A DNA stretch of 58,319 nucleotides from Bacteroidales bacterium (lineage in GTDB: Bacteria; Bacteroidota; Bacteroidia; Bacteroidales; Paludibacteraceae): positions 1 through 58,319 of the forward strand of contig CAAFZS010000052.1 of assembly GCA_900767595.1 (NCBI GenBank), read 5' to 3'. Positions 641-52,801 of the stretch are shown piece by piece (position 1 is the first letter of the stretch; the number at the start of each line of letters is the position of its first letter). A program made the translations under genes and the position numbers. The notes under the pieces are model-generated. The model was not told the origin of the DNA. It saw only the letters and a list, made by a program, of their open reading frames with translations, and ran no database searches.

Positions 641-658
641 CACAATCCACAATCCACA
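641..658 (+). repeat. mini-repeat family D (CCACAAT heptamer), intergenic
   Basis: cacaatccacaatccaca. Confidence 0.7.
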
Positions 659-864
659 TGATAGCCACATTAATTGAACCTTATGCCACTATGAGTGGCT
701 CCATCTCTCAAGAAGATGATAAATATGTGCGTATGCTCAATGGTAAATGTATCGTTCAGCGTAAGCCGCGTCGTCAATCTGCCTTACAAGCCCGACTGCG
801 TGAACAGTTCGGACAGAAATATGGTACGGCTCGTAAGAAAACACTATGTACGGTGCTCCGATAA
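658..864 (+). CDS. hypothetical small basic protein
   Basis: 68-aa ORF directly downstream of the VapE-like gene. No recognisable motif. Its stop lies inside the 852-874 hairpin. Confidence 0.25.
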   Translation: MIATLIEPYATMSGSISQEDDKYVRMLNGKCIVQRKPRRQSALQARLREQFGQKYGTARKKTLCTVLR

Positions 865-874
865 ACGGAGCACC
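852..874 (+). terminator. 9-bp stem hairpin over the stop of the small ORF, with no T-tract
   Basis: ggtgctccg-ataaa-cggagcacc. A second cggagcacc copy at 877-885 could pair instead. Confidence 0.3.
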
Positions 875-988
875 CACGGAGCACCATAGGACAGCCGTTG
901 CCCCGTATAATCTCCTATGTGTCTTTTAATATGCTTTTTTAAAAATCTAATACTAATTTATCAAAAACTTTTGCAATAATGCATTATA

Positions 989-1020
989 TTTGCATATATG
1001 CAAAAGTTTTTGTAACTTTG
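989..1020 (+). promoter_or_regulatory. Bacteroidota sigma-A promoter (-33 TTTG / -7 TAACTTTG) for the GH26-led cluster
   Basis: TTTG at 989-992 and TAACTTTG at 1013-1020, with a 20-nt spacer. Confidence 0.6.
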
Positions 1021-1040
1021 TAGCCAAATTAGATATAGCA

Positions 1041-3961: not shown

Positions 3962-6465
3962 CCTACGGATATTTTGATGATAAGAACAGGGAGTACGTGA
4001 TTGAAAATCCCGCTACCCCTTTCCCTTGGATTAACTACCTTGGTAACGAAGATTTCTTCGGACTGATATCCAATACAGCCGGTGGTTACACCTTCTGTAA
4101 GGATGCCAAGTTCCGCCGTATCACCCGCTATCGCTATAACGGCGTGCCTATGGATGCCGGCGGCCGGTACTTCTATATCAAAGACGGTGACATCGTTTGG
4201 AACCCGGGATGGAAACCATGTAAGACCCCCCTCGATAAGTATGAGTGCCGTCACGGTATGAACTATACCCGCATCACGGGAACGAAGAATGGGGTAGAGG
4301 CCTCTCTGCTCACTTTTGTACCCCTGCATACTTGGGCAGAAGTGCACAAATTACAAATCACAAATCATACATCACAAATCAAACATCTAAAGCTTTTCAG
4401 CTTTGCTGAATGGTGCCTCTGGAATGCCTCTACGGATATGGAGAACTTCCAACGGAACTGGAGTACGGGGGAGATAGAAGTGGAAAGTGAAAGTGAAAGT
4501 GGAGAGTTTACAAGTATTTACCATAAGACGGAGTATAAGGAAAGACGGGATCACTACGCTTTCTATGCCTTGGCGAATCGCAAAGCCGATGGTTGGGATA
4601 CGGACCGCGAGTCGTTTATCGGTTTATATAACGACTTCTCCAATCCGCAATGCGTGATGAAGGGTAAGCCCGCTATGTCCGTTGCCCACGGCTGGAGCCC
4701 GATTGCTTCGCACTACGTGGAACTGACCCTCCAACCCGGCGAGAGCCAAGACCTTATCTTCCTGCTCGGTTATGTAGAGAACGAACAGGACAACAAGTTC
4801 TCAGCTGCCGATATCGAGCGCAAACGCAAAGGCGAACTTATCAGTTCCCAAGATAGTGACGTGACCTTAGTTAATAAAGCGCGCGCGCACGAACTTATCG
4901 AGCGTTTCGCCACCGTCGAAGCGGTGGATAAGGCTTTTGCTGAACTCCGCACGCTTTGGGACGGATTGCTCAGTACGTTTGCGGTCGAGAGCAAGGATGA
5001 ACGCCTCAACCGTATGGTGAACATCTGGAACCAATACCAATGTATGATCACCTTCTGCTTCAGCCGTTCTGCCTCGTTCTTTGAGTCGGGCATAGGTCGT
5101 GGCATGGGCTTCCGCGATAGTAATCAGGACCTCGTCGGATTTGTGCACCAGATTCCAGAACGTGCTCGCGAACGAATCATCGATATAGCCTCTACGCAGT
5201 TCCCTGACGGAGGCTGCTATCACCAATACCAACCGCTCTCCAAACGCGGGAACAACGATATCGGTGGCGGATTCAATGATGACCCGATGTGGCTAATCTT
5301 TGGTACAGTCGCTTATATCAAAGAGACGGGCGATTACTCGATCTTGGACGAGATGGTGCCTTTCGACAACCAACCCGGTACGGAAGTCACTCTACTCGAA
5401 CACCTGTGTATCAGTTTTGACCACGTAGTCAATAACCTCGGCCCACAACACTTACCCTTGATTGGTCGCGCCGACTGGAACGACTGTCTGAACCTCAACT
5501 GCTTCAGTTGGGACCCGAACGAGAGCTTCCAAACAACCGAGAATAAAACCGAAGGCAGTAAGGCCCAATCGCTGATGATTGCCGGTCTGTTCGTGTTCTG
5601 CGGACGAGACTATGTCTCGTTAGTGGAGAGTTTAGAGTGTAGAGTGGAGAGTAGTGTAGAGTTGAATAAGTTGAGAGTGGAAGCAGAAAGGGCGCAAGCG
5701 GAGATAGATAAGATGATTGAAGCCGTTAAGCAGTACGGCTGGGACGGCGAATGGTACTTGCGTGCATACGATTATTTCGGCAATAAGATTGGTTCCAACG
5801 AGAACGAAGAAGGAAAGATCTTCATCGAATCCCAAGGCTTCTGCACTATGGCGGAGATAGGCAAAGAGGATGGACTGGTAGATAAAGCCCTCGACAGCTG
5901 TAAGAAATACTTAGATACCCCTCACGGAATGGTACTCAACCATCCGGCTTTCACCACCTACCACGTGGAGATGGGCGAGATATCTTCCTATCCGGCAGGC
6001 TACAAGGAGAATGCCGGTATCTTCTGCCATAACAACCCGTGGGTGATCATCGGCGAGGCGAAGGCTGGTCGCGGTAACGATGCGTGGGAACACTATACGA
6101 AGATTGCTCCCGCTTGGATAAAGGACCAAGATCTGCACAAGATTGAACCCTACGTTTATTGTCAGATGGTAGCCGGTAAGGATGCGGCTAAACCCGGCGA
6201 AGGAAAGAACTCTTGGCTCACGGGTACCGCTGCTTGGAACTGGCTCACTGTATCGCAGTATATCCTCGGTATCCAACCCGGATTCAATGAACTCATCATC
6301 GATCCCTGTATCCCTGCCAATATGGATGGTTTTACCGTACATCGTCGCTGGCGCGAGGCGGAATATGAGATTATCGTTCGCAACCCGAACCATAAACAGA
6401 AAGCGGACCAACCGACGGTAGTAGCTTATCACCCCGGCAAACAAACCATTGAAATAATATTATGA
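3958..6465 (+). CDS. GH94 cellobiose/cellodextrin-type phosphorylase
   Basis: 835 aa. The N-terminus [46 protein letters not shown] is typical of GH94. Hosts repeats at 4345, 4477 and 5621. Confidence 0.85.
4345..4387 (+). repeat. mini-repeat family D (CACAAAT heptamer variants), in frame in GH94
   Basis: cacaaattacaaatcacaaatcatacatcacaaatcaaacatc encodes [14 protein letters not shown]. Confidence 0.75.
4477..4506 (+). repeat. mini-repeat family H (AGTGAA hexamer), in frame in GH94
   Basis: gaagtggaaagtgaaagtgaaagtggagag encodes [10 protein letters not shown]. Confidence 0.75.
5621..5680 (-). repeat. mini-repeat family B (CTCTAAA/CTCTACA heptamers, G-poor strand is minus), in frame in GH94
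   Basis: tagtggagagtttagagtgtagagtggagagtagtgtagagttgaataagttgagagtgg encodes [20 protein letters not shown]. Confidence 0.9.
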
Positions 6466-7514: not shown

Positions 7515-7515
7515 T

Positions 7516-8859
7516 ATGGCTTCAATTAAAGAAAAACTCGCTTATGCACTTGGTGATGCTGCTGCCGGTGGTATCACGTGGAAAATTATGTCTATTGCCT
7601 TTCCGCTATTCTTTACCAATGTCTTTGGCTTAAGTTTCGCGGATGCAGCAATATTAATGCTCGTGGCTCGTCTGTTTGATGTAGTGACCGATCCTATCCT
7701 CGGTTCACTGGCAGACCGCACGCAGTCCAAATGGGGAACCTATCGTCCGTGGCTCATCTTCGGTGCTATTCCTTACGGACTGATCTTCGCCCTCTTGCTC
7801 TTTACCCCTGACCTCGGTCCTGTTGGTAAACGGGTATATGCCTATACGCTTTATCTGATGATGATGGCTATCTACACGGCAGTGAATGTGCCCTATGGCT
7901 CTTTGCTGGGTGTAATGACCGAAGATGATAATGAGAAAAACGAGTTCTCCTCCTATCGAATGGTAGGTGCTTATCTGATGGGATTCATTACCTTGGCTAT
8001 CTTCCCCTATGTGCAGCGTTGGATTGGCGGAACAGAGGCGCACCAATATGCCGTTATCGGTGTGATTTTTGGTGTTTTGGCTGCGGTGATGACCCTCATC
8101 TGCGGACTATGCACGAAGGAGCGTATCAAACCCAAACGCGCAGAGCATTATACGGCTAAACAGTTTGTGGATTTAGTCAAAAATAAACCTTGGCTCTACC
8201 TCACCGGTATGGGTATATTGACCAATTTCTTCAATGGTTTCCGCTATGCTGCGGCAGGGTATATGTTCACTTACTGTTTAGGAGGTGATGTGACGTGGGG
8301 TAAGGTGATTATTAACTTCACCGTCTTTATGGCGATAGGTGAGGTAACGTGTATGATCTTTGGTGGTATCTCGCCCGCCTTCACTAAATGGGTGGGCAGC
8401 AAACGTAAAGCTTTCCTGCTCGCAGGACTCATCTGCGCCATCACTTCGGTATTATTCTTCTTTATCCCGATGGATGCCAATTATATGTGGCTGATGATCG
8501 CTGTGGTGATCCTTACCTCTATGGGTATCGGTATCTATTCACCCCTATTGTGGTCAATGTATGCTGACGTAGCTGATTATGCTACCGATACGTTTGGAAC
8601 ATCCTCTACAGGACTGATTTTCTCCTCGGGTACGATGGCTCAAAAACTCGGCGGAGCGATCTCGGGTTCCCTTATCGCTGCTTTGTTAGGCGCTGCGGGA
8701 CTTGTCTCCTCCCAGGATATGTTGACGGGCGAAACGATAGTAACCATTACCAACGAACAATCCGTTCAGTCTATGATCTGGTTACTTTTCTCCCTTATCC
8801 CGGCAGGTATCGCCTTAGTGATGATGCTGCTAACCTATAAATATCCGATTAAAAAGTAG
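7516..8859 (+). CDS. GPH-family (MFS) glycoside:cation symporter
   Basis: 447 aa and polytopic. The N-terminus KEKLAYALGDAAAGGITW is typical of glycoside-pentoside-hexuronide symporters. Its position next to the epimerase matches the known mannobiose pathway gene order. Confidence 0.8.
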   Translation: MASIKEKLAYALGDAAAGGITWKIMSIAFPLFFTNVFGLSFADAAILMLVARLFDVVTDPILGSLADRTQSKWGTYRPWLIFGAIPYGLIFALLLFTPDLGPVGKRVYAYTLYLMMMAIYTAVNVPYGSLLGVMTEDDNEKNEFSSYRMVGAYLMGFITLAIFPYVQRWIGGTEAHQYAVIGVIFGVLAAVMTLICGLCTKERIKPKRAEHYTAKQFVDLVKNKPWLYLTGMGILTNFFNGFRYAAAGYMFTYCLGGDVTWGKVIINFTVFMAIGEVTCMIFGGISPAFTKWVGSKRKAFLLAGLICAITSVLFFFIPMDANYMWLMIAVVILTSMGIGIYSPLLWSMYADVADYATDTFGTSSTGLIFSSGTMAQKLGGAISGSLIAALLGAAGLVSSQDMLTGETIVTITNEQSVQSMIWLLFSLIPAGIALVMMLLTYKYPIKK

Positions 8860-8888
8860 TGTAGAGTGGAGAGTTTAGAGTTTAGAGA
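8857..8888 (-). repeat. mini-repeat family B spanning the symporter stop and the epimerase start
   Basis: tagtgtagagtggagagtttagagtttagaga contains the TAG stop (8857-8859) and the GTG start (8866). Confidence 0.9.
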
Positions 8889-10044
8889 TATATTGACGAC
8901 GAATATCCTGCCTTACTGGTTGCGGTTGCAGGATAAGGAACAGGGTGGGTTCTACGGGCAGGTGCTCGCAGACGAGACGGTAGTACAGCATGCGAATAGA
9001 GGAGCTATCCTTTATGGTCGTATCCTCTGGACCTTCTCCGCCGCCTATCGCGCGCTGGGAAAGAAGGAGTATCTGGCAGCAGCCAATCAAGCGAAAAACT
9101 ATATCCTCAACCATTTTATCGATAAACAACAGGGTGGGGTATATTGGGAATTGGATTACTTAGGCAACCCTGTCAACGACCGCAAACAGTTCTATGCGTT
9201 GGGTTTTGTCCTCTATGGCTTAACGGAGTATATCCTCGCTACGGGCGATACATCCGTGTTGCCGTACGCTATCGACCTCTACCATTGTATAGAAGACCAT
9301 GCTTGGGACCTGCAATCGGGTGGTTATATCGAGGCTACAGAGCGCGATTGGAGTGCTATCTCCGATTACCGATTGAGTGAGAAAGATGTCAATGCACCTA
9401 AATCGCAAAACACCCACCTGCATATTTTAGAACCCTATACGAATCTCTATCGCGTATGGCCACAAGAGGAAGTGAAACGATCTATCTTGCGTCTGATTGA
9501 CGTCTTCAAAAACCATATCATTCAACCTTCCGGTCACCTTGGCCTGTTTTTCGATTACGACTGGAATGTCTTACAGCGAAGCGGTCTTTCAGCCGAAGGC
9601 GGTCTGTCAGCGCAGCGGTCTGCCAGCGTAGCGGTCCCTTTCAGTTGCGGTCACGATATCGAATTCTCGTGGTTGCTTGATGAAGCCTGTGAGGTCATCG
9701 GTGTGAACGAAGACGAAACGGTACAACGGGTAGCCACGGCAGCCAAAGAGGGACTCTTGTCTGACGGGCGAATGGAAGGAACATGGTGGGAACAATGCGA
9801 GACAATCATCGGTTATGAAAATATCTACCGCCGCTTTGGAGACGAAGAAAGCAAACGCATTGCCGAGCGTTGTTGGCAGGCAACCCAACAACACTTCATC
9901 GACTACGAGCATGGCGAGTGGTGGGAGTATCCCAATCTTCAATCTTCAATCTTCATTCGTCATTCCGACAAGGCCGGCTTCTGGAAATGTCCATACCATA
10001 ATTCACGTTTATGTTTACAAATAATGCTTTATGAAACACACTAA
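8866..10044 (+). CDS. cellobiose 2-epimerase (N-acylglucosamine 2-epimerase superfamily)
   Basis: 392 aa with ILPYWL...GGFYG and an AGE-fold pattern. Only a GTG start is available and it lies inside repeat 8857-8888. Also hosts repeats at 9574 and 9933. Confidence 0.75.
   Translation: MESLEFRDILTTNILPYWLRLQDKEQGGFYGQVLADETVVQHANRGAILYGRILWTFSAAYRALGKKEYLAAANQAKNYILNHFIDKQQGGVYWELDYLGNPVNDRKQFYALGFVLYGLTEYILATGDTSVLPYAIDLYHCIEDHAWDLQSGGYIEATERDWSAISDYRLSEKDVNAPKSQNTHLHILEPYTNLYRVWPQEEVKRSILRLIDVFKNHIIQPSGHLGLFFDYDWNVLQRSGLSAEGGLSAQRSASVAVPFSCGHDIEFSWLLDEACEVIGVNEDETVQRVATAAKEGLLSDGRMEGTWWEQCETIIGYENIYRRFGDEESKRIAERCWQATQQHFIDYEHGEWWEYPNLQSSIFIRHSDKAGFWKCPYHNSRLCLQIMLYETH
9574..9652 (+). repeat. 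mini-repeat family C (16/17-nt unit CAGCGGTCTTTCAGCG), in frame in the epimerase
   Basis: About 5 degenerate units encoding QRSGLSAEGGLSAQRSASVAVPFSCG. Confidence 0.9.
9933..9958 (+). repeat. mini-repeat family A (TCTTCAA heptamer), in frame in the epimerase
   Basis: caatcttcaatcttcaatcttcattc encodes NLQSSIFI. Confidence 0.9.
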
Positions 10045-11497
10045 ATTTTTAGCAGTATTGCTACTATCCACAATCCACTATCCACTATCCACAATGATGG
10101 CTATTCAATTGCCATCACTGATAGGGGACAATATGTTGTTACAACAACAAACGAATGTTAACCTTTGGGGAACTGCTACGCCTGGTAACACCGTATCGGT
10201 TTATGCCACTTGGGGTGAACAAGCCGAAACCAAGGCCGGCAAAGATGGACGTTGGTCCGTGACATTGGCTACGCCTACTGCCTCTTATACGGAGCATACC
10301 CTCACGTTCGTGGAGACTCCTACCAAACGGGCTTATTATAACCCCGATCCGGTGCAAGTGAACCATGTGCTCATCGGTGAGGTGTGGTTCGGTAGTGGAC
10401 AAAGTAACATGGAGATGCCCCTTATGGGTTTCTGGCAATGTCCTACCGAAGGTGCGAATAAAGAGATTGCTACCGCAGGGAATTATGCCGGTAAGATTCG
10501 TTACGCTATCATTGATCATGTACAAGCGACTACTCCTCAAGAGAATGTGTCGGGTGGCTGGTACGAATGCAATGCCTTCAATGCTCCCCGTTTTGGGGCA
10601 GCAGCCTATTTCTTTGCAAAGATGCTGCAACAAGCATTGGATATTCCCGTGGGTATCATCAACTGTTCTTGGGGCGGCAGCCGCGTAGAAGGTTGGCTCC
10701 CTCGTGAGATTCTCAATACCTACAAAGATGTAGACCTCTCCGACAAAGCTATGAAAGAGATTGCAGATAAACAACTCTATCTCAGTCCGCTCATTATGCA
10801 CGACGGTATGCTTTGGCCTTGCCATTATTATACAGTCAAAGGTTGGCTTTGGTACCAGGGTTGCTCTAATGTAGGTCACGCAGACACCTATACCGATCGT
10901 ATGGAGACCCTCGTTAAGTATGTCCGCGGATTATGGAAGAATGATAAGATGCCGTTCTATTTTGTGGAGATAGCCCCCTTCCGCCATGGCGATGCCGATG
11001 CCGCTTGGGCTGCCGAACTGCGCGAATCGCAATGGGCATTAGAGGATCGTGTACCTTACTGCAAAGGAATCTCTACCAACGACCTCGTTTATGACTATGA
11101 GATAGATAATGTACATCCCGCACAGAAACAAATGGTAGGCGAACGCCTTGCGTATTTGGCTCTTAACCATGACTATGGTTTTAAGACCGTCTATGCCGAT
11201 GCTCCGCGTTATGAACATCACGAAATCAGTGGCAACCATATCGATGTCTATTTCACCAACTGCGCTGACGGCTTCTCTCGTTGGCACGACTACAAAGGCT
11301 TTGAAGTCATTGACGAAAAAGGAAACGTACACCCGGCTATCATCGAGGGCGTACAAGACGTGCCTCACGCACTGCGCTTCTCTGCCGAAGGCGTAGAACA
11401 TCCGACGGCGGTTCGCTACTGCTTCCGCAATTTCCAAATAGGTAATCTTGCTAATATGCGCTATTTACCTATCGTTCCCTTCCGTACGGACAAATAA
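10031..11497 (+). CDS. SASA-family (sialate O-acetylesterase-like) carbohydrate esterase, probable acetyl-mannan esterase
   Basis: Contains the SGNH-like block GEVWFGSGQSNMEMPL. The signal peptide contains repeat 10064-10095. Confidence 0.7.
   Translation: MKHTKFLAVLLLSTIHYPLSTMMAIQLPSLIGDNMLLQQQTNVNLWGTATPGNTVSVYATWGEQAETKAGKDGRWSVTLATPTASYTEHTLTFVETPTKRAYYNPDPVQVNHVLIGEVWFGSGQSNMEMPLMGFWQCPTEGANKEIATAGNYAGKIRYAIIDHVQATTPQENVSGGWYECNAFNAPRFGAAAYFFAKMLQQALDIPVGIINCSWGGSRVEGWLPREILNTYKDVDLSDKAMKEIADKQLYLSPLIMHDGMLWPCHYYTVKGWLWYQGCSNVGHADTYTDRMETLVKYVRGLWKNDKMPFYFVEIAPFRHGDADAAWAAELRESQWALEDRVPYCKGISTNDLVYDYEIDNVHPAQKQMVGERLAYLALNHDYGFKTVYADAPRYEHHEISGNHIDVYFTNCADGFSRWHDYKGFEVIDEKGNVHPAIIEGVQDVPHALRFSAEGVEHPTAVRYCFRNFQIGNLANMRYLPIVPFRTDK
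10064..10095 (+). repeat. mini-repeat family D (CCACAAT/CCACTAT), in the esterase signal peptide
   Basis: ctatccacaatccactatccactatccacaat encodes STIHYPLSTM. Confidence 0.9.
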
Positions 11498-11520
11498 TTC
11501 TTCAATCTTCAATCTTCAAT
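11497..11520 (+). repeat. mini-repeat family A filling the esterase/GH5-GH27 intergenic gap
   Basis: attcttcaatcttcaatcttcaat runs from the last base of the TAA stop to 1 nt before ATG 11522. Confidence 0.9.
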
Positions 11521-17938: not shown

Positions 17939-17954
17939 ATCACAAATCACAAAA
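17921..17954 (+). repeat. mini-repeat family D (CACAAAT) across the GH31 stop and intergenic gap
   Basis: aataaatcacaactataaatcacaaatcacaaaa. Confidence 0.8.
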
Positions 17955-23171: not shown

Positions 23172-27229
<4,058 letters not shown>

Positions 27230-29873: not shown

Positions 29874-29893
29874 AGTGAAAGTGAGAGTGAATT
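29873..29893 (+). repeat. mini-repeat family H (AGTGAA), intergenic after the AAA ATPase stop
   Basis: aagtgaaagtgagagtgaatt. Confidence 0.6.
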
Positions 29894-33466: not shown

Positions 33467-33540
33467 TCACTAAAACTAACGACTAATAACTAACGACTAA
33501 CGACTAATAACTAATAACTAACGACTAACAACTAATAAAC
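33464..33540 (+). repeat. mini-repeat family E (TAACGAC/TAATAAC heptamers) filling the PFOR/decarboxylase intergenic gap
   Basis: About 11 units running from the nifJ TAA stop to the base before ATG 33541. Confidence 0.95.
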
Positions 33541-37605: not shown

Positions 37606-37626
37606 CGACTAATCACTAACGACTAA
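37582..37626 (+). repeat. mini-repeat family E (14-nt TAACGACTAATCAC x3) spanning the nuclease stop and the ribF start
   Basis: ctaaaactaacgactaatcactaacgactaatcactaacgactaa. The TAA stop at 37603-37605 lies inside it, and its last base is the A of the ribF ATG (37626). Confidence 0.95.
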
Positions 37627-41703: not shown

Positions 41704-43140
41704 TTACTTCTCGTAACAACCGGCAGAGGCTTGTTTCGCATCGCGAGGCAAGCCTTCTCTGTCCTTATCATAAAGACTAGCCACGGCGGAATCTGCAATG
41801 CCTCGTGCAGGAGAGTTGTCGGCGAGGTGGAAATCGTAATAAGTGTAAACCTCGTATTCGAAATACGTGTTCTTAAATACGCGAGCCGTGTCGCCTTTTT
41901 GCCAGTAGATATTGGGAGTAGAGGAGTAGGGGGGTAGAGGAGTAGGGAGACTATCAGACTTAAGGTAGTTTCCAAAAATACGACCCTCATAATCCTCTCC
42001 AATTGTGTCTGCCCACATTAGGTTATGATTTCCTATGCCGTCAATGACGCAGTTCATAAACTCGGCTGTCACCTTGGGCAGACTATCGGTATTATCGACA
42101 TACACCGCACTAAGTCCCATATTCGGTACAGACTGAATGCGCACATTCGTCGAGTTGAAATACGAGGCTATCGTAGAATGGATAAACGTATGCTTCCCTC
42201 CCATCAGATAGACACAATAAGCGGCACAGTTACTGACCTCCGTATTGCTTACCTCGACATCCATATTGTGTATCGTCAACCCATTACCCGCTTGGTTATG
42301 AATACGGCAGTTCGTTAACCGACAGAGAGGCAGAGAGGCAGAGAGCTTGCTCGTATCCGCATTGATGAGTTGTAGACCATTAGTGCCACTGACCACTTCT
42401 AATCCATTGATGAGATATTCGTCAGGACCACCCTCGGAGTGAATAAGGTAAAAACCGTCCCATCCGCCGGCAGCATAAGCATAAGGTACCTTGTCAAAGA
42501 GGTTGTCAATGCGGTCGCTGATACAAACCCCACCTCCGATAGAAACATTTCCTTCGGCAATCAAACATGCCCCGTTGTGGAAATATAGCCGCGCACCGGA
42601 CTCCATCGCTAATGATTGAGTCACTTTGACCGTATCAAAAATAAGATAAGGCTTGACATTATTGAAGGTGTATTGTTCATAAGTGGTGCAGCGAGTAGGA
42701 GACTTGATCTTCTCCACATCCTGCCCGTAAGCCTCCAAAGCAAGAGGAAAACGATTGCCATTGACCTCAAACCAGAGCATATCCTCAACAAGAACCGGTG
42801 AGTTGGCATCCTGCGGGTCGATATTCACCCTCACATAAAGGATAAGACTATCCCCTCCATTAATCTGACCGCCCATCTTATCGAGTTGTGTCTCCCCGTC
42901 AAAATTGATATAGAAGTATTTCTGCTTGTCTTGTAAAACGTGATCAATGATGACGGCGTTCTTATTGGGATTATATATCGTAACGGACTTGGTGGCACTA
43001 CCCATCGTAGTGAACACCGTATCAAAACGCAACGTGTCCACAGAGAACATTAAGCGCAAAGAGGAATCGGTACTCACTTTTTCGTTTTGGCAAGAGGCAA
43101 AAGCAAGCATACACCAAACTATGTATAATATCTTTTTCAT
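41704..43140 (-). CDS. lipoprotein with a predicted right-handed beta-helix fold
   Basis: Lipobox AFASC. Repetitive N/G-rich beta-helix-like segments. Hosts repeat 41914-41946. Confidence 0.4.
   Translation of the reverse strand: MKKILYIVWCMLAFASCQNEKVSTDSSLRLMFSVDTLRFDTVFTTMGSATKSVTIYNPNKNAVIIDHVLQDKQKYFYINFDGETQLDKMGGQINGGDSLILYVRVNIDPQDANSPVLVEDMLWFEVNGNRFPLALEAYGQDVEKIKSPTRCTTYEQYTFNNVKPYLIFDTVKVTQSLAMESGARLYFHNGACLIAEGNVSIGGGVCISDRIDNLFDKVPYAYAAGGWDGFYLIHSEGGPDEYLINGLEVVSGTNGLQLINADTSKLSASLPLCRLTNCRIHNQAGNGLTIHNMDVEVSNTEVSNCAAYCVYLMGGKHTFIHSTIASYFNSTNVRIQSVPNMGLSAVYVDNTDSLPKVTAEFMNCVIDGIGNHNLMWADTIGEDYEGRIFGNYLKSDSLPTPLPPYSSTPNIYWQKGDTARVFKNTYFEYEVYTYYDFHLADNSPARGIADSAVASLYDKDREGLPRDAKQASAGCYEK
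41914..41946 (-). repeat. mini-repeat family F, in frame in the beta-helix lipoprotein
   Basis: The plus strand reads gggagtagaggagtaggggggtagaggagtaggg. The sense strand encodes PTPLPPYSSTP. Confidence 0.9.
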
Positions 43141-43892
43141 TCGAAGTTAAATACGAGGGAGATAACGTGGTTGGTGAGGTGCGAGATACTGCCCATATAA
43201 TAGCGTTCTGTACACTCCGCTTCTTGGGGATTGGGGTAGAGTTGGTTATTGAAACCGATGTGGTATTTCAATTCCGGACAGAACTTAAACCATTGGAAAT
43301 AAGTATCTACACCAAACCCAATCTCGAAGAAATAATCCAGCAGATTGGTGCACACCGCTCGCTGCTTACTGAAACTATTGACATTGAGACTCACACCGCC
43401 GCCCGTTATCACGTAGGGACGATAGTTCCGCTCCCGAGCCGCCGAGAACTTCAAATACAAAGGAATATCCATCGGGATAGCAAAGTCGCTATTGGTATAA
43501 ACATTATTGATGATTGTAGGGTCGCCTATTTGCGGGTCAATGAACTTAACTTTGGAATTTTCGGCCTTGAAGGTGATGGTGCGTTCCCCGAAATGCAGGG
43601 AAGGACAGAACCGAAGGTTGAGGAAGCGGCAGAGCCGGACATCGGATACAAACCCCACAGCAAAACCCGGACCAACGGAGGAAGTACGAGCATGGATAAG
43701 GGAAGAAACACCATTCACATCTTGTTCTACACCGGACTCTCTTACCCCATAACCTCCAAAGTCCAAACCCAACGAGAACCCGAAGTGGACAATCTTATCA
43801 TCCGCATAAGGGTTATTCTGTCCCTCTTGTGCCATCGCGTTTGTGGCAACAACCAGAACACCTAAAAATACTATAAACTTTAAACTTTTCAA
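43137..43892 (-). CDS. PorT-family outer-membrane beta-barrel protein
   Basis: 251 aa with a signal peptide and an alternating beta-strand pattern. Only a TTG start is available, and the first codons lie in degenerate repeat sequence. Confidence 0.45.
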   Translation of the reverse strand: MKSLKFIVFLGVLVVATNAMAQEGQNNPYADDKIVHFGFSLGLDFGGYGVRESGVEQDVNGVSSLIHARTSSVGPGFAVGFVSDVRLCRFLNLRFCPSLHFGERTITFKAENSKVKFIDPQIGDPTIINNVYTNSDFAIPMDIPLYLKFSAARERNYRPYVITGGGVSLNVNSFSKQRAVCTNLLDYFFEIGFGVDTYFQWFKFCPELKYHIGFNNQLYPNPQEAECTERYYMGSISHLTNHVISLVFNFE

Positions 43893-43933
43893 CTTCTCTA
43901 AACTCTAAACTCTACACTCTACACTCTAAACTA
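43874..43933 (+). repeat. mini-repeat family B filling the TonB-receptor/PorT-like intergenic gap
   Basis: The core ctctaaactctaaactctacactctacactctaaacta (43896-43933) abuts the receptor TAG stop. A degenerate part overlaps the PorT-like TTG start. Confidence 0.9.
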
Positions 43934-46564: not shown

Positions 46565-46962
46565 TGTACGGCTTGATTATAGCCATCGGTTCCGTGACCG
46601 ATGATGCTGTGTTGACAAACGTCTGTTAATAGACTGGTTCTGCGGAATGGTTCTCTATTCAAAATATTACTAATATGCACTTCCACGACAGGAACGGTAC
46701 ATAACTCAATGGCATCCCTTATACTTACGCTCGTGTGCGTGTACCCGCCCGCGTTTAATATAATGCCGTCGCAATCGGCGGCTTGCAGCCAATCAATGAT
46801 ATCCCCTTCGTGGTTACTCTGCTTATACGTGAAGCAAACATCGTGCCAAAGTCGTTGGAGTTCGATTAAAATCGTCTCCATCGACTTTGTACCATAAATC
46901 TTCGGGTCTCTTTTCCCGAGTAGATTTAGATTCGGACCATTAATAATGAGAATATTCTTCAT
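46537..46962 (-). CDS. aroQ: type II 3-dehydroquinate dehydratase
   Basis: Contains ILIINGPNLNLLG...QSNHEG...NAGGYTHTSV...EVHISN. Confidence 0.9.
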   Translation of the reverse strand: MKNILIINGPNLNLLGKRDPKIYGTKSMETILIELQRLWHDVCFTYKQSNHEGDIIDWLQAADCDGIILNAGGYTHTSVSIRDAIELCTVPVVEVHISNILNREPFRRTSLLTDVCQHSIIGHGTDGYNQAVQWLNEHYSH

Positions 46963-47005
46963 TCTTCATTCTTCATTCTTCAATCTTCAATCTTCAATCT
47001 TCAAT
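46954..47005 (+). repeat. mini-repeat family A (CATTCTT then CAATCTT units) filling the rho/aroQ intergenic gap
   Basis: attcttcattcttcattcttcattcttcaatcttcaatcttcaatcttcaatc. It abuts the rho stop (47006) and includes the aroQ ATG (46960-46962 on the minus strand). Confidence 0.95.
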
Positions 47006-48745
47006 CTACCTCGCCCCATTGACGGCGAGCAGGAACTCGTCATTATCGTTGGTTCGCTCCATGTAGGATTTGAGTTTCTCCATAGCTTCGATACCATTCA
47101 TATCACTGAGTTGTTTACGTATCTGCCACATACGAGATAATACATCTTCCGGTAATAGCAGGTCATCGCGACGCGTACTGGATGCCGGAATATCCACAGC
47201 GGGGAAGATACGTTTGTTCGATAGTTTGCGATCCAGCTGCAACTCCATGTTTCCTGTACCCTTGAACTCCTCGAAGATAAGGTCATCCATCTTACTACCC
47301 GTTTCGGTCAAAGCCGTAGCGATAATCGTCAGACTACCGCCATTCTCAATGTTTCGGGCAGCACCAAAGAAACGTTTAGGCTTGTGAAGTGCTTGGGCCT
47401 CCACACCACCGGACAACACTTTACCGCTTGCAGGGGCTACCGTGTTATAGGCACGTGCCAAACGTGTGATAGAGTCGAGTAGGATAACCACGTCGTGACC
47501 ACATTCCACTAATCGTTTTGCTTTCTCGTGTACGATATTCGCTACCTTAACGTGGTTCTCTGCGGGTTCATCAAAGGTCGAAGCAATCACTTCGGCTTTG
47601 ACGCTACGCGCCATATCGGTAACTTCCTCCGGACGCTCGTCAATGAGCAGCACAATCATATACACCTCGGGGTGGTTGGCGGAAATAGCGTTGGCAATCT
47701 CTTTTAACAAAACGGTCTTACCGGTCTTTGGTTGCGCCACAATCAGTCCGCGTTGACCCTTACCGATAGGAGCAAAGAGGTCTATGATACGCACGCTCAA
47801 CGGATCACTCTTATCGCCCTTGCAGAGTTTGAACTTCTCATCAGGGAAGAGAGGCGTTAAGTTCTCAAACGCTGTACGACGCTTCGCTTGCTCGGGATCA
47901 AGTCCGTTGACGCGGATCACTTTATCTAATGGGAAATATTTATCCGTCTCTTTGTTAATGCGTATCGTGCACTCAACCGTATCACCGGTTTTGAGACCAT
48001 ATTGCTTGATTTGCTGTTGACTCACATAGATGTCATCAGGAGACGAGAGGTAGTTGTAATCCGCAGAACGTAAGAACCCGTATCCGTCTTGTACGCTTTC
48101 TAATGTTCCCATCGCAATCACGTTCTCTCCCAAACTCAATTGGGGTTCCTCCGGTTTTTCCGGCGTTGCCGGTGTTTCCGGATTTTCCGGTGTTTCCGGT
48201 TTTTCCGGCATCTTTGCATCCTCTACCTTTGCCGATTCCTCTACCTTTACCTTCGGTTTGCGTCCCCGCTTCTTTGGCTGTGGTTTGGGTTCCTCTGCTG
48301 CGGGAGCAGGTGTGGAAGCAGATGTCGGAGCAGACTCTGCCTGCGGTCCCTCCAACGTCGCCTCGATTTGTTGCAAAGGTTTACGGGCCTCGACAGCCGC
48401 TACGGTGCGGTTCTTGCGGTGCTCTACCTTTGCTTGGGTGTGTTGCAACTCGTGGAGCGTCTCTTTTTCATCTCCAACGGTAGCGCCGGTGATTTTCTGT
48501 TCTAAGTCTTGGGTCTCCACCTTTTCTACTTTGGGCGCCTGCGCTTGGCGAATGCGCACACGCTCGCGCTTACTGGTCTCTTTTGCCTGTACTTCTACCG
48601 CACGTTGGTCGGCTTGCGCGTCCAAGATACTATAAGCAATCATCTTGGGAGTCTGACTGCGACGAGTCTTTAAACCCAACGAGTCGGCTACCTCACGTAA
48701 CTCTTCGAGCGACATACGCTCGAGTCTTTTCATATCATACTGCAT
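47006..48745 (-). CDS. rho: transcription termination factor Rho with a long disordered N-terminal insertion
   Basis: ORF trimmed to ATG 48745; ATG 48733 is an alternative. Walker A AQPKTGKT and RNA-binding domain GFLR. K/E/P-rich insert. Confidence 0.9.
48151..48209 (-). repeat. in-frame 9-nt tandem repeat (NNTTTCCGG on the plus strand) in the rho N-terminal insert
   Basis: ccggtttttccggcgttgccggtgtttccggattttccggtgtttccggtttttccggc. The sense strand encodes [20 protein letters not shown]. Confidence 0.85.
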
Positions 48746-49206: not shown

Positions 49207-49221
49207 TTAGGAGGATTAGTT

Positions 49222-49410: not shown

Positions 49411-49431
49411 TCATTAAAAACGAATTAAACT

Positions 49432-49584: not shown

Positions 49585-49607
49585 AAATCTCGTATATTTG
49601 ATAAAAA

Positions 49608-49641: not shown

Positions 49642-49650
49642 GTACCTTTG
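49619..49650 (+). promoter_or_regulatory. promoter (-33 TTTG / -7 TACCTTTG) for the lipid kinase
   Basis: TTTG at 49619-49622 (in the terminator loop) and TACCTTTG at 49643-49650. Confidence 0.55.
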
Positions 49651-49666
49651 CAGCCGCAAACGAATA

Positions 49667-49700
49667 TTAAACCCGCTAAACCGGTTAAACTTGTTAAACC
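49667..49700 (+). repeat. mini-repeat family I (TTAAACC-type 8-mers x4) in the 5' UTR of the lipid-kinase gene
   Basis: ttaaacccgctaaaccggttaaacttgttaaacc lies between the -7 box (49643-49650) and ATG 49713. Confidence 0.75.
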
Positions 49701-49712
49701 TTTTATACTAAT

Positions 49713-50651
49713 ATGCTTGGAATTATCATTAATCCCAAATCCGGGAAAAGGGCGTTTCGCGCTCAACGCTTATACCTTTGGAAACTGCTTAAGGCCCGTC
49801 ATCAGCCCTTCACGTATCGCGTAACTAAATATGCTAATCACGCGCTTGAACTTGCGCGCGAGTTAGTAGAAAAAGGATACGACCAGATTCTCGTCCTCGG
49901 TGGTGATGGCACCCTGAGCGAGGTGATTAACGGAATCATGCGGGCAGATATCTCTGCTGAACAACGATCAAAAATACAATTTGGTCTTATGCCTCGTGGT
50001 ACAGGTAACGATTGGGCCCGGTACTGGAAACTGAACAAAGACTTCAAACGTTCTCTTCATTATTTTTTTGAAGAAGGCAAATGTCAACCGCTGGATGTGG
50101 GTTGTGTTACCTATTGGCGCAATGGTATTGAGCACCACCGCTATTTCATTAACTCCGTCGGCTTTGGTGTGGATGCCGTCACTTGTGTGGAAGCCTTGCC
50201 GCTAAAGTATTATATTGGTTCGCACCACATTAATTACCTCATCGGTTTTTTGATGGCGGTCTTCCGTCATAAACCGATGCCTGTCAACCTCACTGCGGAT
50301 GGGCAAGTGATAACGAAGGATAAGATGTTTACTATGAACATCGGTAATGGTCCTTTCTCCGGTGGGGGAATGAAGCAGAATCCCGATGCCGACCCTCGCG
50401 ATGGAATCTTCCATTCGATGTTTGTGGGCAAACCTACGTTTAAACAAATCTGTCAAGCTATACCCAAACTATTCTCGGGAAAAATAAACGAAGTGGATGT
50501 CATTCACTCCTTCACAGCCAAGGATATTGTGGTTGATACCAAGAAACACCTTGTTATAGAGGCCGATGGTATCTTAATGGACTTTATGGGACCGTGCGAG
50601 ATTCATTGTCTCCACAAAGCGCTCTGCATGACCGTCCCTAATTACTGCTAA
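49713..50651 (+). CDS. YegS/BmrU-family lipid (diacylglycerol-type) kinase
   Basis: Contains the motif GGDGTLSEVINGI. Confidence 0.8.
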   Translation: MLGIIINPKSGKRAFRAQRLYLWKLLKARHQPFTYRVTKYANHALELARELVEKGYDQILVLGGDGTLSEVINGIMRADISAEQRSKIQFGLMPRGTGNDWARYWKLNKDFKRSLHYFFEEGKCQPLDVGCVTYWRNGIEHHRYFINSVGFGVDAVTCVEALPLKYYIGSHHINYLIGFLMAVFRHKPMPVNLTADGQVITKDKMFTMNIGNGPFSGGGMKQNPDADPRDGIFHSMFVGKPTFKQICQAIPKLFSGKINEVDVIHSFTAKDIVVDTKKHLVIEADGILMDFMGPCEIHCLHKALCMTVPNYC

Positions 50652-51386
50652 CTTGCCAATATCTAACATCTGATAATCCTCCGGCTCATAGGCTTGGAGG
50701 ATTTCTTTTTGACATATATCGAGGTAGAAATCAATGAGTGAAAACACATCTTCTTCCTTATCTAATAGACGCGCGCATACGCGAGGACTTAAAATCTGCA
50801 TCCCGCTAAAAGCCAATCTTTCAGCGTCAGCGGTCTTACAGCGCAGCGGTCTTTCAGCGCAGCGGTCTTTCAGCGTTAGCGGTCTTACCTCTCCTGTAGA
50901 GATGTTCTCCCATCCAATCATTCGCCTCTGCTTGTCAAACAGCAGATATCGGCTTGTCTCCCGTTTACTCACCACAAGTCGGCTGATTCCATCTTTCTCG
51001 TATGCCTCTATCAATGCCTTCAAGTCGATATTACTTAATATATCCACATTGAGTGCCAATATACTCTCAACTTTAGAACTACTCTCAACTCTACACTCTA
51101 AACTCTCAACTCTTTTTAGTCCTCCTCCGGTATCAAGCAATTGCTCTCTTTCATCGCTTACCATTAGGTGGCAATCAAAATAATCGTGTTCTTGTAAGTA
51201 GTTGAGAATCAGGTCAGGAAAGTGGTGTGTATTGATGTAGATATCCCGTATTCCGGCATCGCGCACCATCTCTATTTGCCATTGTAGCAACGTCTTGCCT
51301 CCTACTTCCACGAGGGCTTTGGGCTTGTCGTTAGTAATGGGTTGTAGGCGGGTACCGAGTCCCGCGGCAAAAATCATCGCTTTCAT
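50574..51386 (-). CDS. sugar-1-phosphate nucleotidyltransferase (MurU-like)
   Basis: Begins MKAMIFAAGLGTRLQPITNDKPKALV. Hosts repeats 50817 and 51063. The 3' end overlaps the convergent lipid-kinase gene by 78 nt. Confidence 0.75.
   Translation of the reverse strand: MKAMIFAAGLGTRLQPITNDKPKALVEVGGKTLLQWQIEMVRDAGIRDIYINTHHFPDLILNYLQEHDYFDCHLMVSDEREQLLDTGGGLKRVESLECRVESSSKVESILALNVDILSNIDLKALIEAYEKDGISRLVVSKRETSRYLLFDKQRRMIGWENISTGEVRPLTLKDRCAERPLRCKTADAERLAFSGMQILSPRVCARLLDKEEDVFSLIDFYLDICQKEILQAYEPEDYQMLDIGKLAVIRDGHAERFVETMNLARSHKVH
50817..50888 (+). repeat. mini-repeat family C, in frame (antisense orientation) in the nucleotidyltransferase
   Basis: The unit cagcggtctt(t/a)cagcg is spaced exactly 16 nt apart (50828, 50844, 50860). 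The sense strand encodes LTLKDRCAERPLRCKTADAER. Confidence 0.95.
51063..51113 (+). repeat. mini-repeat family B, in frame in the nucleotidyltransferase
   Basis: actctcaactttagaactactctcaactctacactctaaactctcaactct. The sense strand encodes [17 protein letters not shown]. Confidence 0.9.
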
Positions 51387-52801
51387 AGTACTTTATCAAT
51401 CCCGCGTTCGCGGTGAATAAGGTGAATAGTAACGTTCGGGAAGAGTTGACGGATATGTTCCGCTGTCCGCTCGGCACAATACACGCTGCGATGTTGTCCT
51501 CCGGTGCATCCAAAGGCAATTTGCAGATGGGTGAACTCGCGTTCGATGAAACGTTTTACATGGTGGTCAGTCAATGCCCAGACGGACTGTAAGAAAGTGG
51601 TTATTTCTCCATCTTTCTCTAAAAACTCAATAACCGGTGTATCCAATCCTGTCATCTCACTAAACTCCTTGTATTTACCCGGATTATGGGTGCTTCTACA
51701 GTCAAATACATATCCTCCTCCATTGCCTGTTTCGTCTTCGGGAACACCTCTTTTATACGAAAAAGAATATATTGTTATTGTTAGTCCTTCAGCGCAGCGG
51801 TTTTTCAGCGTCAGCGGTCTTTCAGCGCAGCGGTCTTTCAGCGTTAGCGGTCCTTCAGCGCAGCGGTCTGCCATCTGCTGCAAATATGGGAACTCATTCC
51901 CTAACTCATCGTCCAATACCTTTTTAAGGTTTTTCAGTGCTGCCGGAATAGAAGCCAAAAAATGCTCTTTGCGCTCGAAATATCCCCGATAGCCATAGGC
52001 TCCAAGTACTTGTAGCAAGCGGAAAAGCACGAAATAATTCAGCGTGTCCCAATCGAAACGAATATCGCTAATCTTACCTAATTCTTCTTGATAGCATTGC
52101 AACAGTTCTTCCCGCAAATCGTCCGGTAGTCCTGCTTTAGCTTGCCAAAGGAAAGAAGCTAAATCGTAGTAAATAGGTCCTCTTCGTCCTCCTTGGAAGT
52201 CGATAAAATAGGGTTCGCCGTTAACAATCATCACGTTGCGTGACTGAAAGTCACGGTAGAGAAATGTTTGCGTGTGCACAGAAGCGGAGGCACGACTGCC
52301 TATCAGCCGGTCGGCTAACCGCTCAAACTCGGCTTCTAACTTAGGTTCTGAAAACTCAATCTTTGTTCCCTTGAGAAAACAATATTTAAAGTAATTGAGG
52401 TCCCAGAAGATACTGCGTATATCCATTGTTGGCACGGGGAAACAGACACTCCAGTCGAGGTCTTGAGCTCCCTCTATTTGAATGTGTGCCAAGGCACGAA
52501 TAGTCTTCTTTAAGAGTTCTTTTTCAGTTGTATCAAAAGTACCGGTCTCTCGACCGTTCTTGATGGCATCAAAGAGCGATACATCCCCGAGATCGGTTAC
52601 CTCGTAACTCATCTCGTCTTCGGCCACGGATAGGATGCGAGGCACTGGCAAACCTTTGCTCGCAAAATGCCGTGCCAATGTGATAAACGCGTGGTTTTCG
52701 TCTTTATTTGTTCCTTCTACATGAATAATGGATTGTCCATTCTCACTTAAAACGCGGCTATATTGTCGGTTGCTACCGGCGGATGGAAGATTTTGTGTCA
52801 T
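51383..52801 (-). CDS. aminoglycoside-phosphotransferase-fold sugar kinase (AmgK-like) fused to a RapZ C-terminal-like domain
   Basis: N-terminal APH fold (YRDFQSRNVMI...FIDFQG). C-terminal block FDCRSTHNPG...IAFGCTGGQHRSV resembles the RapZ C-domain. Repeat 51785-51872 forms the linker. Confidence 0.65.
   Translation of the reverse strand: MTQNLPSAGSNRQYSRVLSENGQSIIHVEGTNKDENHAFITLARHFASKGLPVPRILSVAEDEMSYEVTDLGDVSLFDAIKNGRETGTFDTTEKELLKKTIRALAHIQIEGAQDLDWSVCFPVPTMDIRSIFWDLNYFKYCFLKGTKIEFSEPKLEAEFERLADRLIGSRASASVHTQTFLYRDFQSRNVMIVNGEPYFIDFQGGRRGPIYYDLASFLWQAKAGLPDDLREELLQCYQEELGKISDIRFDWDTLNYFVLFRLLQVLGAYGYRGYFERKEHFLASIPAALKNLKKVLDDELGNEFPYLQQMADRCAEGPLTLKDRCAERPLTLKNRCAEGLTITIYSFSYKRGVPEDETGNGGGYVFDCRSTHNPGKYKEFSEMTGLDTPVIEFLEKDGEITTFLQSVWALTDHHVKRFIEREFTHLQIAFGCTGGQHRSVYCAERTAEHIRQLFPNVTIHLIHRERGIDKVL
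51785..51872 (+). repeat. mini-repeat family C forming the kinase/RapZ_C linker
   Basis: Alternating 16- and 17-nt units form a 33-nt in-frame super-unit. The sense strand encodes DRCAEGPLTLKDRCAERPLTLKNRCAEG. Confidence 0.95.

Follow-up and report, generated by a model that had tools for sequence, protein, structure and literature searches.

The 58,319-nt contig CAAFZS010000052.1 of a Bacteroidales bacterium from the Paludibacteraceae, analysed over its whole length and referred to here as the window, is ordinary chromosomal DNA in which arrays of short tandem mini-repeats occur both within and between genes. The genes are very densely packed, with only ~4 kb of non-coding DNA in the list of open reading frames (ORFs). 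The metabolic genes form a mannan/cellobiose cluster of glycoside hydrolases (GH26, GH5, GH94, GH130, GH2 and GH31), a 2-epimerase, a symporter and an alpha-galactosidase, while the housekeeping genes include cstA, dapA, ligA, ruvC, PFOR, ribF, rho, aroQ, rpmB/rpmG and genes for an AmgK/MurU-like kinase and nucleotidyltransferase. No tRNA genes or Rfam families are present within the window, and no SusC/SusD pair was seen there. The ORFs hosting arrays are real genes, as Pfam and PDB alignments extend across the arrays, or lie on either side of them, in a single frame. The comparison set consists of the 58-kb window and ~300 kb of related loci, designated by L numbers.

Unit families, reading frames and protein segments

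A dispersed, multi-family population of mini-repeats had been described in the initial annotation, made from the sequence alone, and this description is borne out by Tandem Repeats Finder (TRF) and by comparison with shuffled sequences. The 68 TRF rows reduce to ~36 family-type arrays of 18-90 bp with periods of 7, 8, 9 and 16/17 nt, located between 639 and 51869 (Table 1). At an equal threshold, arrays of period ≥6 number 49 in the window versus 7.8 on average, and at most 11, in 20 third-order Markov shuffles. Two-unit patterns were counted against 100 dinucleotide-preserving shuffles: 15 matches versus 0.06 expected for family A (TCTTCAATCTTCAA, ≤1 mismatch), 21 versus 0.07 for family B (CTCTAAACTCTMMA, ≤1 mismatch) and 16 versus 0.29 for family C (GCGGTCTTTCAGCG, ≤2 mismatches). 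Families A-C are thus 50-300 times more frequent than the shuffles predict, far from the chance level that would have undermined the description. Runs of at least 30 nt devoid of G or of C are also in excess (37 versus 12.7 ± 3.3 in shuffles).

The unit families are A (TCTTCAA), B (CTCTAAA/CTCTACA), C (16/17 nt), D (CCACAAT/CAATCAC/CACAAAT), E (TAACGAC/TAATAAC), F (CTACTCCT) and H (AGTGAA), together with family I, whose unit had to be revised to 9 nt (AAACCCGCT) and which occupies two loci, 36640 and 49668. Exact tandems of TCTTCAA are found at 6 loci of the window, of CTCTAAA at 3 and of CTACTCCT at 2, and single units recur at 5-7 loci each. Across 85 Bacteroidales loci, 52 of the 64 exact 7/8-nt tandem units are entirely without G or without C, and the minimum free energy of G-free 7/8-nt arrays is 0 kcal/mol. 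Families A-C lie on the plus strand of the window in 15 of 18 cases; no replication-strand rule could be set, because the syntenic locus L001 has family C on the other strand.

The arrays had also been proposed to lie mostly in frame inside conserved genes, which agrees with what is found: ~25 of the ~36 are within Pfam- or PDB-verified genes, and all 25 coding arrays stay open, with homology continuing in frame on both sides. Stop triplets on their sense strand amount to 0 in the gene frame and to 19 and 17 in the other two frames. The open frame is non-trivial given these 36 off-frame stops. In CTCTAAA arrays, every third unit is altered to CTCTCCA, CTCTCAA or CTCTACA, removing the in-frame TAA, while the alternation of 16 and 17 nt in two antisense family C arrays (33-nt period) leaves one frame free of TGA. 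Family E contains stops in every frame and is found only in intergenic positions. The G-free strand is the sense strand in ~22 of 29 arrays, a bias of the kind that selection would give, since all three stop codons are without C. The arrays are probably translated. Their bypass or splicing was considered and rejected in view of the open frames, the stop-breaking variants in phase and the structural need for the replaced segments.

Residue-level alignment with solved structures reveals insertions of 7 and 11 aa in GH94, ~19 aa in the epimerase and 20 aa in GH31. Many other loci are, by the alignments, near length-neutral replacements of ancestral sequence rather than insertions, a distinction missed at first. 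Examples are DapA aa 85-96 and GH94 aa 130-144 (both 0 aa), RibF (+3 aa), GH31 aa 82-92 (+3), the nucleotidyltransferase (+4) and epimerase aa 356-364 (+2 aa). In structure and ortholog alignments, the inserted peptides are located in loops and the replaced segments on surface elements, while the remaining coding arrays occupy signal peptides, termini or domain linkers. The DapA segment aligns to the helix that follows the GxGxNxT motif, in a protein whose overall length is as in outgroups, and AlphaFold models it as a native barrel helix (H82-92, mean pLDDT 89.8). The array-encoded peptide of RibF, QSPITNHQSPITNH, is modelled as a disordered loop (residues 110-126, pLDDT below 50). With loops, linkers and even a barrel helix swapped for arbitrary repeat-encoded peptides, and with such exchanges able to continue, conserved enzymes such as DapA, RibF, LigA and GH94 represent a natural experiment on protein robustness and on the birth of new sequence.

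Unrelated proteins share repeat-encoded peptides, as the initial annotation had noticed. LPYSSTPL is common to GH31 and Usp, SAQRS to the epimerase and GH5, and STLN, like KLSTL, to GH31 and the PreA-like protein. NLQSSI is present in the epimerase and DapA, whereas GH2, also listed for it, has LQSSI. A further peptide, ESLECRVES, is common to GH94 and the nucleotidyltransferase.

Approximately two-thirds of the arrays of the window are coding, but spacers are nonetheless enriched. About 10 arrays are intergenic and make up short spacers just upstream of start codons; 9 of 10 end 0-32 nt from the downstream start codon, and several constitute the whole spacer, 0-3 nt from the next start (11499, 33464, 37587, 43896, 46956, 8858 and 639). 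Both orientations are represented (5 sense, 4 antisense). Comparison of the arrays of the window revealed no signature of a mobile element: terminal inverted repeats, target duplications and flanks in common were all absent.

The system had been called non-palindromic. This holds for most 7/8-nt units, which fold to 0 kcal/mol, but not for family C, each unit of which contains a putative mini-hairpin. In the family C arrays of the window and of L085-L104, the unit has the form CA-[stem]-G-N(1-2)-A-[stem']-GGTC, corresponding to tandem GCGNAGC/GCGNNAGC mini-hairpins. Among units with a G..A loop, 86 of 91 stems are perfectly paired; there are 7 stem types of 2-4 bp. Loops are GCA (48), GAA (19), GTA (13), GTTA (5), GATA (4), GACA (3) and GAAA (3). 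The stems covary: GC/GC is common, GT/AC is seen in 5 units, which come from 4 contigs and have 4 different loops, and one-sided changes number only 3. Symmetric stem extensions (GGC/GCC, GCC/GGC, GCAC/GTGC, GCCC/GGGC, GCGC/GCGC) are also observed, and cores such as GCGCAGC, GCGTAGC, GCGAAGC, GCGTTAGC and GCGATAGC, among others, fit the GCGNAGC/GCGNNAGC consensus exactly. Nearest-neighbour folding with the ViennaRNA DNA energy model, which does not include a term for the motif, yields z values of only -1.2 to -1.9, not a significant signal. The proposal that family C would form mini-hairpins in DNA is based on stem covariation and on the published consensus. GCGNAGC/GCGNNAGC mini-hairpin DNA is extraordinarily stable, with melting temperatures of 70-76 °C, and only GNA loops form the hairpin; it binds single-stranded DNA-binding protein (SSB) poorly and marks entry sites of primase and polymerase (PMC13037366). 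As a genomic tandem repeat, GCGNAGC mini-hairpins would have a role that can be tested in vivo.

Table 1. Repeat arrays of the window, with their units, strands and locations
Family or unit	Position	Strand	Location and effect
D (TCCACAA x2.9)	639..658	+	intergenic, adjoins ATG at 659 of small ORF
D (CACAAAT)	4345..4387	+	GH94 aa 130-144, supersandwich-domain segment replaced, length change 0 aa
H (AAGTGA)	4478..4501	+	GH94 aa 174-182, 7-aa insertion SESESGE versus 3qde
B, antisense	5622..5662	-	GH94 catalytic domain aa 555-569, 11-aa insertion
B	8858..8887	-	symporter stop codon, 6-nt spacer, and GTG start and 8 first codons of cellobiose 2-epimerase
C	9574..9636	+	epimerase aa 237-257, ~19-aa insertion (QRSGLSAEGGLSAQRSASVAV), putative mini-hairpin units
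A (TCTTCAA x3.3, perfect)	9933..9955	+	epimerase aa 356-364 (PNLQSSIFI), replacement, +2 aa
D (ATCCACA/ACTATCC)	10063..10095	+	signal-peptide region of SASA-type esterase, aa 11-22
A (perfect)	11499..11520	+	entire 24-nt esterase/alpha-galactosidase spacer, 1 nt before ATG at 11522
C	14155..14215	+	GH2 aa 199-219, between sugar-binding and TIM-barrel domains
A with AATAGTC variant	15386..15423	+	GH2 C-terminal domain aa 609-621 (HLQSSIVNSQSSI)
A	15466..15507	+	two frames: GH2 C-terminal tail (NLQSSFFNLHSNNL) and GH31 signal peptide (KIFNLHSSIFILTIL)
B	15683..15713	+	GH31 aa 82-92, replacement, +3 aa versus 5jou
B	15861..15931	+	GH31 aa 141-164, 20-aa insertion (TQPLPLNSTLSTTLNSTLSTLNYT)
F (CTACTCCT)	16193..16227	+	GH31 inter-domain linker aa 252-263 (PYSSTPLLPSSP)
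D (AAATCAC)	17924..17953	+	final GH31 codons, stop and spacer ahead of GH5 start at 17965
C	17976..18050	+	N-terminal part of GH5 lipoprotein signal peptide, aa 4-29; putative extended hairpin GCAC-GAA-GTGC
F	20670..20711	-	Usp aa 41-54 (PYSSTPLPLYSHIL); hypervariable site, family C there in L001
A (x4.9, perfect)	22885..22918	-	DapA aa 85-96, TIM-barrel helix 3 replaced, length unchanged
D	24453..24482	-	LigA aa 393-402, OB fold/zinc finger linker; hypervariable site
H (AAAGTG)	29872..29891	+	AAA_14 gene stop codon and spacer ahead of PFOR
E (TAACGAC/TAATAAC)	33464..33538	+	entire 74-nt spacer from PFOR to next gene, 2 nt before ATG at 33541
B	35005..35035	+	PreA-like aa 83-93 (PLNSKLSTLNS), linker directly before DHO_dh domain
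I (AAACCCGCT, 9 nt)	36640..36661	+	within second EEP nuclease gene
F	37192..37223	+	EEP nuclease aa 319-329 (LHLSSSTPLLL)
E (14-mer x2.9, perfect)	37587..37627	+	nuclease tail, stop codon, spacer and ribF ATG
D (CAATCAC x5.9, perfect)	37968..38022	+	RibF aa 115-133 (QSPITNHQSPITNHPLEII), ancestral segment replaced, +3 aa
8-nt array (TCCTTTCA)	40991..41026	+	C10 peptidase C-terminal region aa 853-864
F	41914..41949	-	beta-helix protein aa 398-409 (LPTPLPPYSSTP)
8-nt array (CCTCTCTG, perfect)	42323..42345	-	beta-helix protein aa 266-273
AAACTTT units, then B	43874..43932	+	entire 38-nt spacer of two minus-strand outer-membrane protein genes; antisense to both
A (TCTTCAT x4, then TCTTCAA x4)	46954..47007	+	rho-aroQ spacer; aroQ ATG inside a unit
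I (TAAACCCGC, 9 nt)	49668..49690	+	22 nt upstream of diacylglycerol-kinase-like gene
C, antisense	50817..50886	+	nucleotidyltransferase aa 167-190; alternating 16/17-nt units, 33-nt period
B, antisense	51081..51113	+	nucleotidyltransferase aa 92-102, replacement, +4 aa
C, antisense	51784..51869	+	kinase aa 311-340, linker between APH and RapZ_C-like domains

Several features of the window accompany these arrays. Between 2420 and 20282, the cluster comprises two GH26, two GH5, GH94, GH130, the 2-epimerase, the symporter, the esterase, a GH27-like gene, GH2 and GH31, adjacent genes being at most 26 nt apart or overlapping (by 4 nt at several junctions and by more at others, for example 40, 14 and 89 nt). 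The 89-nt overlap is that of the GH2 and GH31 ORFs (15440-15528), whose family A array lies in both frames. A 9-nt array (ATGACGATA) at 544-570 is followed, at 600-640, by inverted copies of words resembling GACGGT/ACCGTC, ahead of the small ORF at 659. The Rho insertion region contains, at 48150-48208 (aa 209-228), a 9-nt periodic array (plus-strand unit TCCGGTGTT) that is triplet-compatible and includes both G and C; it looks like the usual low-complexity insert of Bacteroidetes Rho and not like a member of the repeat swarm. The apparent 880-nt gap that includes 48968-49580 contains rpmB, rpmG and a third small ORF, all below the 100-aa ORF cut-off and all free of arrays; the absence of arrays from ribosomal protein genes, claimed earlier, is confirmed for rpmB and rpmG (~48968-49400). 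Finally, a loop indel is present in cstA (~21700-21900), with 'W------YI' in the window and L083 versus 'IEYHSLPLV' in L001 and L082, and its origin from a repeat is not obvious.

Variation among relatives, shared blocks and phage copies

Comparison of orthologs indicates that array sites behave as hypervariable cassettes that switch family between close strains, a property overlooked in the initial annotation. In DapA homologs of 70-93% identity, different families encode the peptides found at one site, namely FNLQSSI (A), NHKSQI (D) and SKLSTLN (B), while a second hot spot is empty in the window. Homologs of ≤68% identity have ordinary sequence at both hot spots. The dapA DNA of the window and of L105 aligns closely outside these two cassette sites. 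At site 1, 30 nt of family D in L105 correspond to 30 nt of family B in L083 with identical flanks, and the window has a perfect family A array that reaches further left into native sequence; at site 2, the length is 12, 36 or 60 nt. Likewise, the cassette families of LigA and Usp differ at fixed sites in four syntenic relatives, and the cassettes of relatives differ in length by multiples of 3 nt.

L083 and L084 encode the same DapA protein and share 97% identity overall, yet identity falls to 58% in a 100-nt interval containing the LigA array. Since near-identical strains of this type differ by whole cassettes, turnover is fast relative to point divergence. Elsewhere in the same pair, identity drops from ~99% to 71-77% over a 200-nt tract of an EEP nuclease gene (L083 6487-6687), which resembles an import by recombination and has no relation to the arrays. 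A motif, SPSG(A/V)QS, recurs inside heptamer cassettes of different proteins and genomes (DapA P0012 and P0018, RibF P0125) and may be a fragment of yet another unit family.

RibF behaves in the same way. All 16 in-group clusters (68-96% identity) differ at one site, and outgroups of ≤55% identity from metagenome-assembled genomes (MAGs) labelled Paludibacteraceae have a normal segment at the cassette site, the two groups being separated by a gap in identity between ≥68% and ≤55%. Array sites are thus occupied in outgroup orthologs by ordinary and different residues, not by the same residues without a repeat. Such comparisons show that the trait belongs to a whole discrete clade of uncultured, gut-type Bacteroidales. 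A DapA-based scan of GTDB genome contigs yielded, among the matches listed, only relatives of ≤61% identity. More distant Bacteroidales (L002, L013, L025, L065, L068) possess G-free or C-free heptamer arrays (TATCAAC, TTAATTG, TAATGAC, AACTTTC and others) that are intergenic only, so that invasion of coding sequence is specific to the clade. The clade is set apart from other Bacteroidales by the recurrence of families together with their location in coding sequence. Two simpler measures were discarded: raw TRF density at score 30 (median 0.49 per kb) does not set the clade apart from other Bacteroidales, and the density of G-free runs depends on GC content and discriminates poorly between loci.

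Arrays at non-orthologous loci have blocks in common. Those at 50817 and 51784 share 41 nt including GCGTTAGCGG, and those at 9574 and 14155 share 32 nt including CAGCCGAAGGCGG, a variant that is also present in LigA of L001. The two-substitution variant CTCTCCA is found in four arrays of the window, where L083 uses CTCTCAA instead, and the AATAGTC variant lies inside family A arrays of both. Such blocks with rare variants, common to non-orthologous arrays, argue for copying between loci.

A 22-nt family C probe retrieved 20 metagenome contigs (GC 0.45-0.56) with the same families at 0.84 arrays per kb. In L103 (1-272), a family C array of at least 272 nt is intergenic at the contig end, upstream of a sulfatase gene, and other arrays at contig ends are found in L102 (36-119 and 1510-1608), L112 (3-65) and L123 (4230-4271). 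This position shows that long arrays exist and break short-read assemblies. In MAGs of rumen- or gut-type Bacteroidales, arrays give strain markers and may mislead gene callers and ortholog alignments.

The same families are present in phages. Several arrays of families A, B and D, including CTCTCCA, occur in IMG/VR viral contigs of GC ~0.5, mostly in gene spacers adjoining start codons (L122, which is IMGVR_UViG_3300021387_005807, and L137, L140-L142 and L116). The terminase large subunit encoded by L122 matches an annotated TerL with 33.7% identity across 94% of the protein, and most of its relatives are from Bacteroidota phages; another array-bearing IMG/VR contig encodes an O-like replication initiator. 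L122 is thus a genuine Bacteroidota-type phage carrying the families of the clade, a link absent from the initial annotation.

Possible origin of the arrays

The reading we favour, with a probability of about 0.45, is that the arrays are lineage-specific minisatellite families that propagate themselves by slippage and template switching and are filtered by selection. Copy number would change through replication slippage. Arrays would be overwritten, extended or seeded by blocks copied from other genomic arrays, through template switching or short-patch conversion at microhomology, and long intergenic arrays (≥272 nt) could serve as donors. Such copying would account for the few units that recur both in resident phages and at loci unrelated to one another. 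Slippage that starts from local seeds, as proposed for Borgs, is insufficient, because units are common to loci, species and phages, and the family-wide sharing of units of non-triplet length likewise points to copying between loci rather than to local slippage alone. Perfect arrays unique to one lineage imply recent formation.

Selection would act only as a filter on these presumably neutral or selfish sequences, which would persist in operon spacers, signal peptides, domain linkers, surface loops and a surface helix, and in genes only where their net length is divisible by 3 and the frame is free of stops. This filter would explain the mutated third unit of CTCTAAA arrays, the 16/17-nt alternation of antisense family C and the G-free sense strand. 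As arrays expand and the native codons beside them are lost, with overall length constrained, ancestral residues would gradually be replaced.

Several points weigh against this explanation. Its template-switching step is conjectural, homologous recombination being unable to explain switches between unrelated families, and microhomology at the junctions and a donor array are both presumed. Length-neutral swaps, in which 30 nt take the place of 30 nt, resemble a directed replacement of patches more closely than copying at random and are explained only by selection on length. Units devoid of G or C, together with the conserved hairpins of family C, suggest a structure-dependent and possibly enzyme-mediated step. 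The data, moreover, are those of 58 kb plus ~300 kb of related loci.

The same observations lend some interest to a dedicated trans-acting repeat writer, that is a reverse transcriptase, a primase-polymerase or another short-template or hairpin snap-back enzyme acting at breaks or stalled forks with the families as templates. Sharp array boundaries without flanking homology, length-neutral cassette swaps, and the sharing of families by unrelated loci, by several clade species and by phages would be expected of it, as would the predominance of units without G or C and the covarying family C stems, in view of the stability, poor SSB binding and primase/polymerase entry described for mini-hairpins (PMC13037366). 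We nevertheless regard this enzyme as unlikely: neither a candidate gene nor a template is present in the window or the related loci, Rfam gives no match, at least 8 families plus many minor units would demand many templates, arrays are often imperfect and mosaic, and distant Bacteroidales have intergenic G-free heptamer arrays of other units without coding invasion. When the process is conceived as cell-wide, sequence-specific repeat writing that depends on structure (either none, or GNA mini-hairpins excluding SSB and attracting primase/polymerase) and overwrites patches in chromosome or phage, it is improbable but has a real chance and, if true, would amount to natural, ongoing patch mutagenesis of essential proteins and to a new class of mutational mechanism.

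Explanations that dispense with inter-array copying fare less well. The arrays could be selected modules, serving as structure-free spacers that aid initiation in Shine-Dalgarno-less Bacteroidota operons or as flexible or heptad linkers, with recurrence due to convergence. Their proximity to start codons in the window and likewise in L122, the zero folding energy of G-free arrays, and the fact that three 7-nt units encode a 7-aa heptad, the DapA cassette being modelled as a helix, all fit this idea, but any array in spacers this short must lie near a start codon, and both orientations occur. Peptide selection is insufficient and cannot fix the families, because the same units are found in coding and non-coding DNA and one of them, CTCTAAA, contains a stop codon yet occurs in genes. 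Cassettes also vary freely between strains and may vanish, as at DapA site 2 in the window, the RibF cassette destroys an ancestral helix, and cytoplasmic housekeeping enzymes derive no obvious benefit; selection of modules is therefore distinctly improbable. Molecular drive without new synthesis, in which point mutation and biased uptake or repair (as for DNA uptake sequences) would be followed by recombination shuffling old alleles, agrees with the many length-neutral replacements, with the mosaic recombination tracts between L083 and L084 and with differences just outside the LigA cassette. It is very unlikely, since substitution cannot produce insertions of 7-20 aa or arrays of ≥272 nt, at least 8 unrelated families would require equally many uptake specificities, and perfect multi-copy arrays unique to a single lineage and blocks of 32-41 nt common to non-orthologous loci are left unaccounted for. 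As for an assembly or chimera error, or host genes that are dead pseudogenes, short-read assemblies do break at long arrays and the window is itself a metagenome-assembled contig; but the recurrence of arrays at orthologous positions in assemblies made independently (NCBI, ENA, Logan and JGI), the frame kept across every coding array, highly conserved flanks and confident structure models make an artefact hardly credible.

Comparison with known repeat systems

Full-text searches of the literature found no description matching such repeat behaviour. A survey across the tree of life reports a high density of short tandem repeats in Bacteroidota coding sequence and nothing further on the topic (PMC12699852). 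The view that the arrays are distinct from Rickettsia palindromic elements (RPEs), STRR sequences and Borg repeats, already advanced in the initial annotation, is supported by a feature-by-feature comparison. RPEs, reportedly described by Ogata et al. in 2000, are a dispersed family whose copies are tolerated where the protein surface permits. Both systems occur in frame within conserved protein-coding genes, but an RPE is a single palindrome of ~100-150 bp that forms a long hairpin, whereas the present arrays are 18-90 bp of 7-17-nt direct repeats, among which only family C has putative hairpins, with short stems. To our knowledge, neither replacement of ancestral segments nor family switching at fixed sites has been described for RPEs. 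Diversity-generating retroelements (DGRs), common in Bacteroidales, also replace a gene patch at constant length between conserved flanks. They differ in needing a homologous template repeat, adenine-specific changes and a nearby reverse transcriptase; there is no reverse transcriptase among the ORFs of the window, adenine-specific changes are not seen, and cassettes found at one site are unrelated in sequence. Repetitive extragenic palindromes (REP/BIME) are imperfect palindromes of ~35 nt located outside genes, unlike the 7-17-nt direct repeats, mostly intragenic, that are found here.

Contingency simple sequence repeats, such as the 7-bp repeats of Haemophilus hmw1A (PMC8262952), resemble the arrays in their short tandem units and in copy number changing via slippage. 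They switch expression on and off, by frameshift or promoter spacing, at few surface-antigen loci, whereas here none of the 25 coding arrays shifts the reading frame, housekeeping enzymes serve as hosts and entire families of units replace one another. The STRR/GGGNATC repeats of cyanobacteria and Xanthomonas (PMC4692102) are likewise dispersed short heptamer arrays of variable copy number, preferentially between co-oriented ORFs near gene ends; in the window, spacers are enriched in arrays although about two-thirds of all arrays are coding. Their units are G-rich and capable of forming G-quadruplexes, in contrast to the G- or C-less units of this clade with folding energies of 0 kcal/mol, and here coding sequence is itself invaded. 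In mini-hairpin DNA, the likeness to family C lies, at the sequence level, in two G-C pairs closing a G-N-A or G-NN-A loop. In the natural cases known, such hairpins occur singly, at priming sites of phages or plasmids and at phage N4 promoters (PMC13037366), as opposed to tandems of 3-17 units in coding genes.

A further close likeness is with Borgs, the extrachromosomal elements of Methanoperedens, which have pervasive, fast-evolving tandem repeats that are both intergenic and in frame in ORFs, that encode new and often disordered peptide segments, that are missing from the host lineage beyond the element, and whose units are skewed in base composition (PMC9879509). Rapid evolution and absence from relatives are also found here, where near-identical strains differ and outgroups are without cassettes. 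Borg units inside ORFs, however, have lengths divisible by 3, are A-enriched and originate independently from local seeds, seen as flanking partial repeats (PMC9879509). Coding arrays of the window have periods of 7, 8, 16 and 17 nt, so that frame is kept only array-wide, their units and blocks are common to several loci instead of being locus-unique, and ancestral residues of conserved enzymes are replaced in a bacterial chromosome. The principle seen in Borgs, that repeats build protein segments, is thereby extended to bacterial chromosomes with non-triplet units shared as families. Each system compared departs from the arrays in at least one defining feature, except for the mini-hairpin consensus, to which family C conforms at the sequence level.

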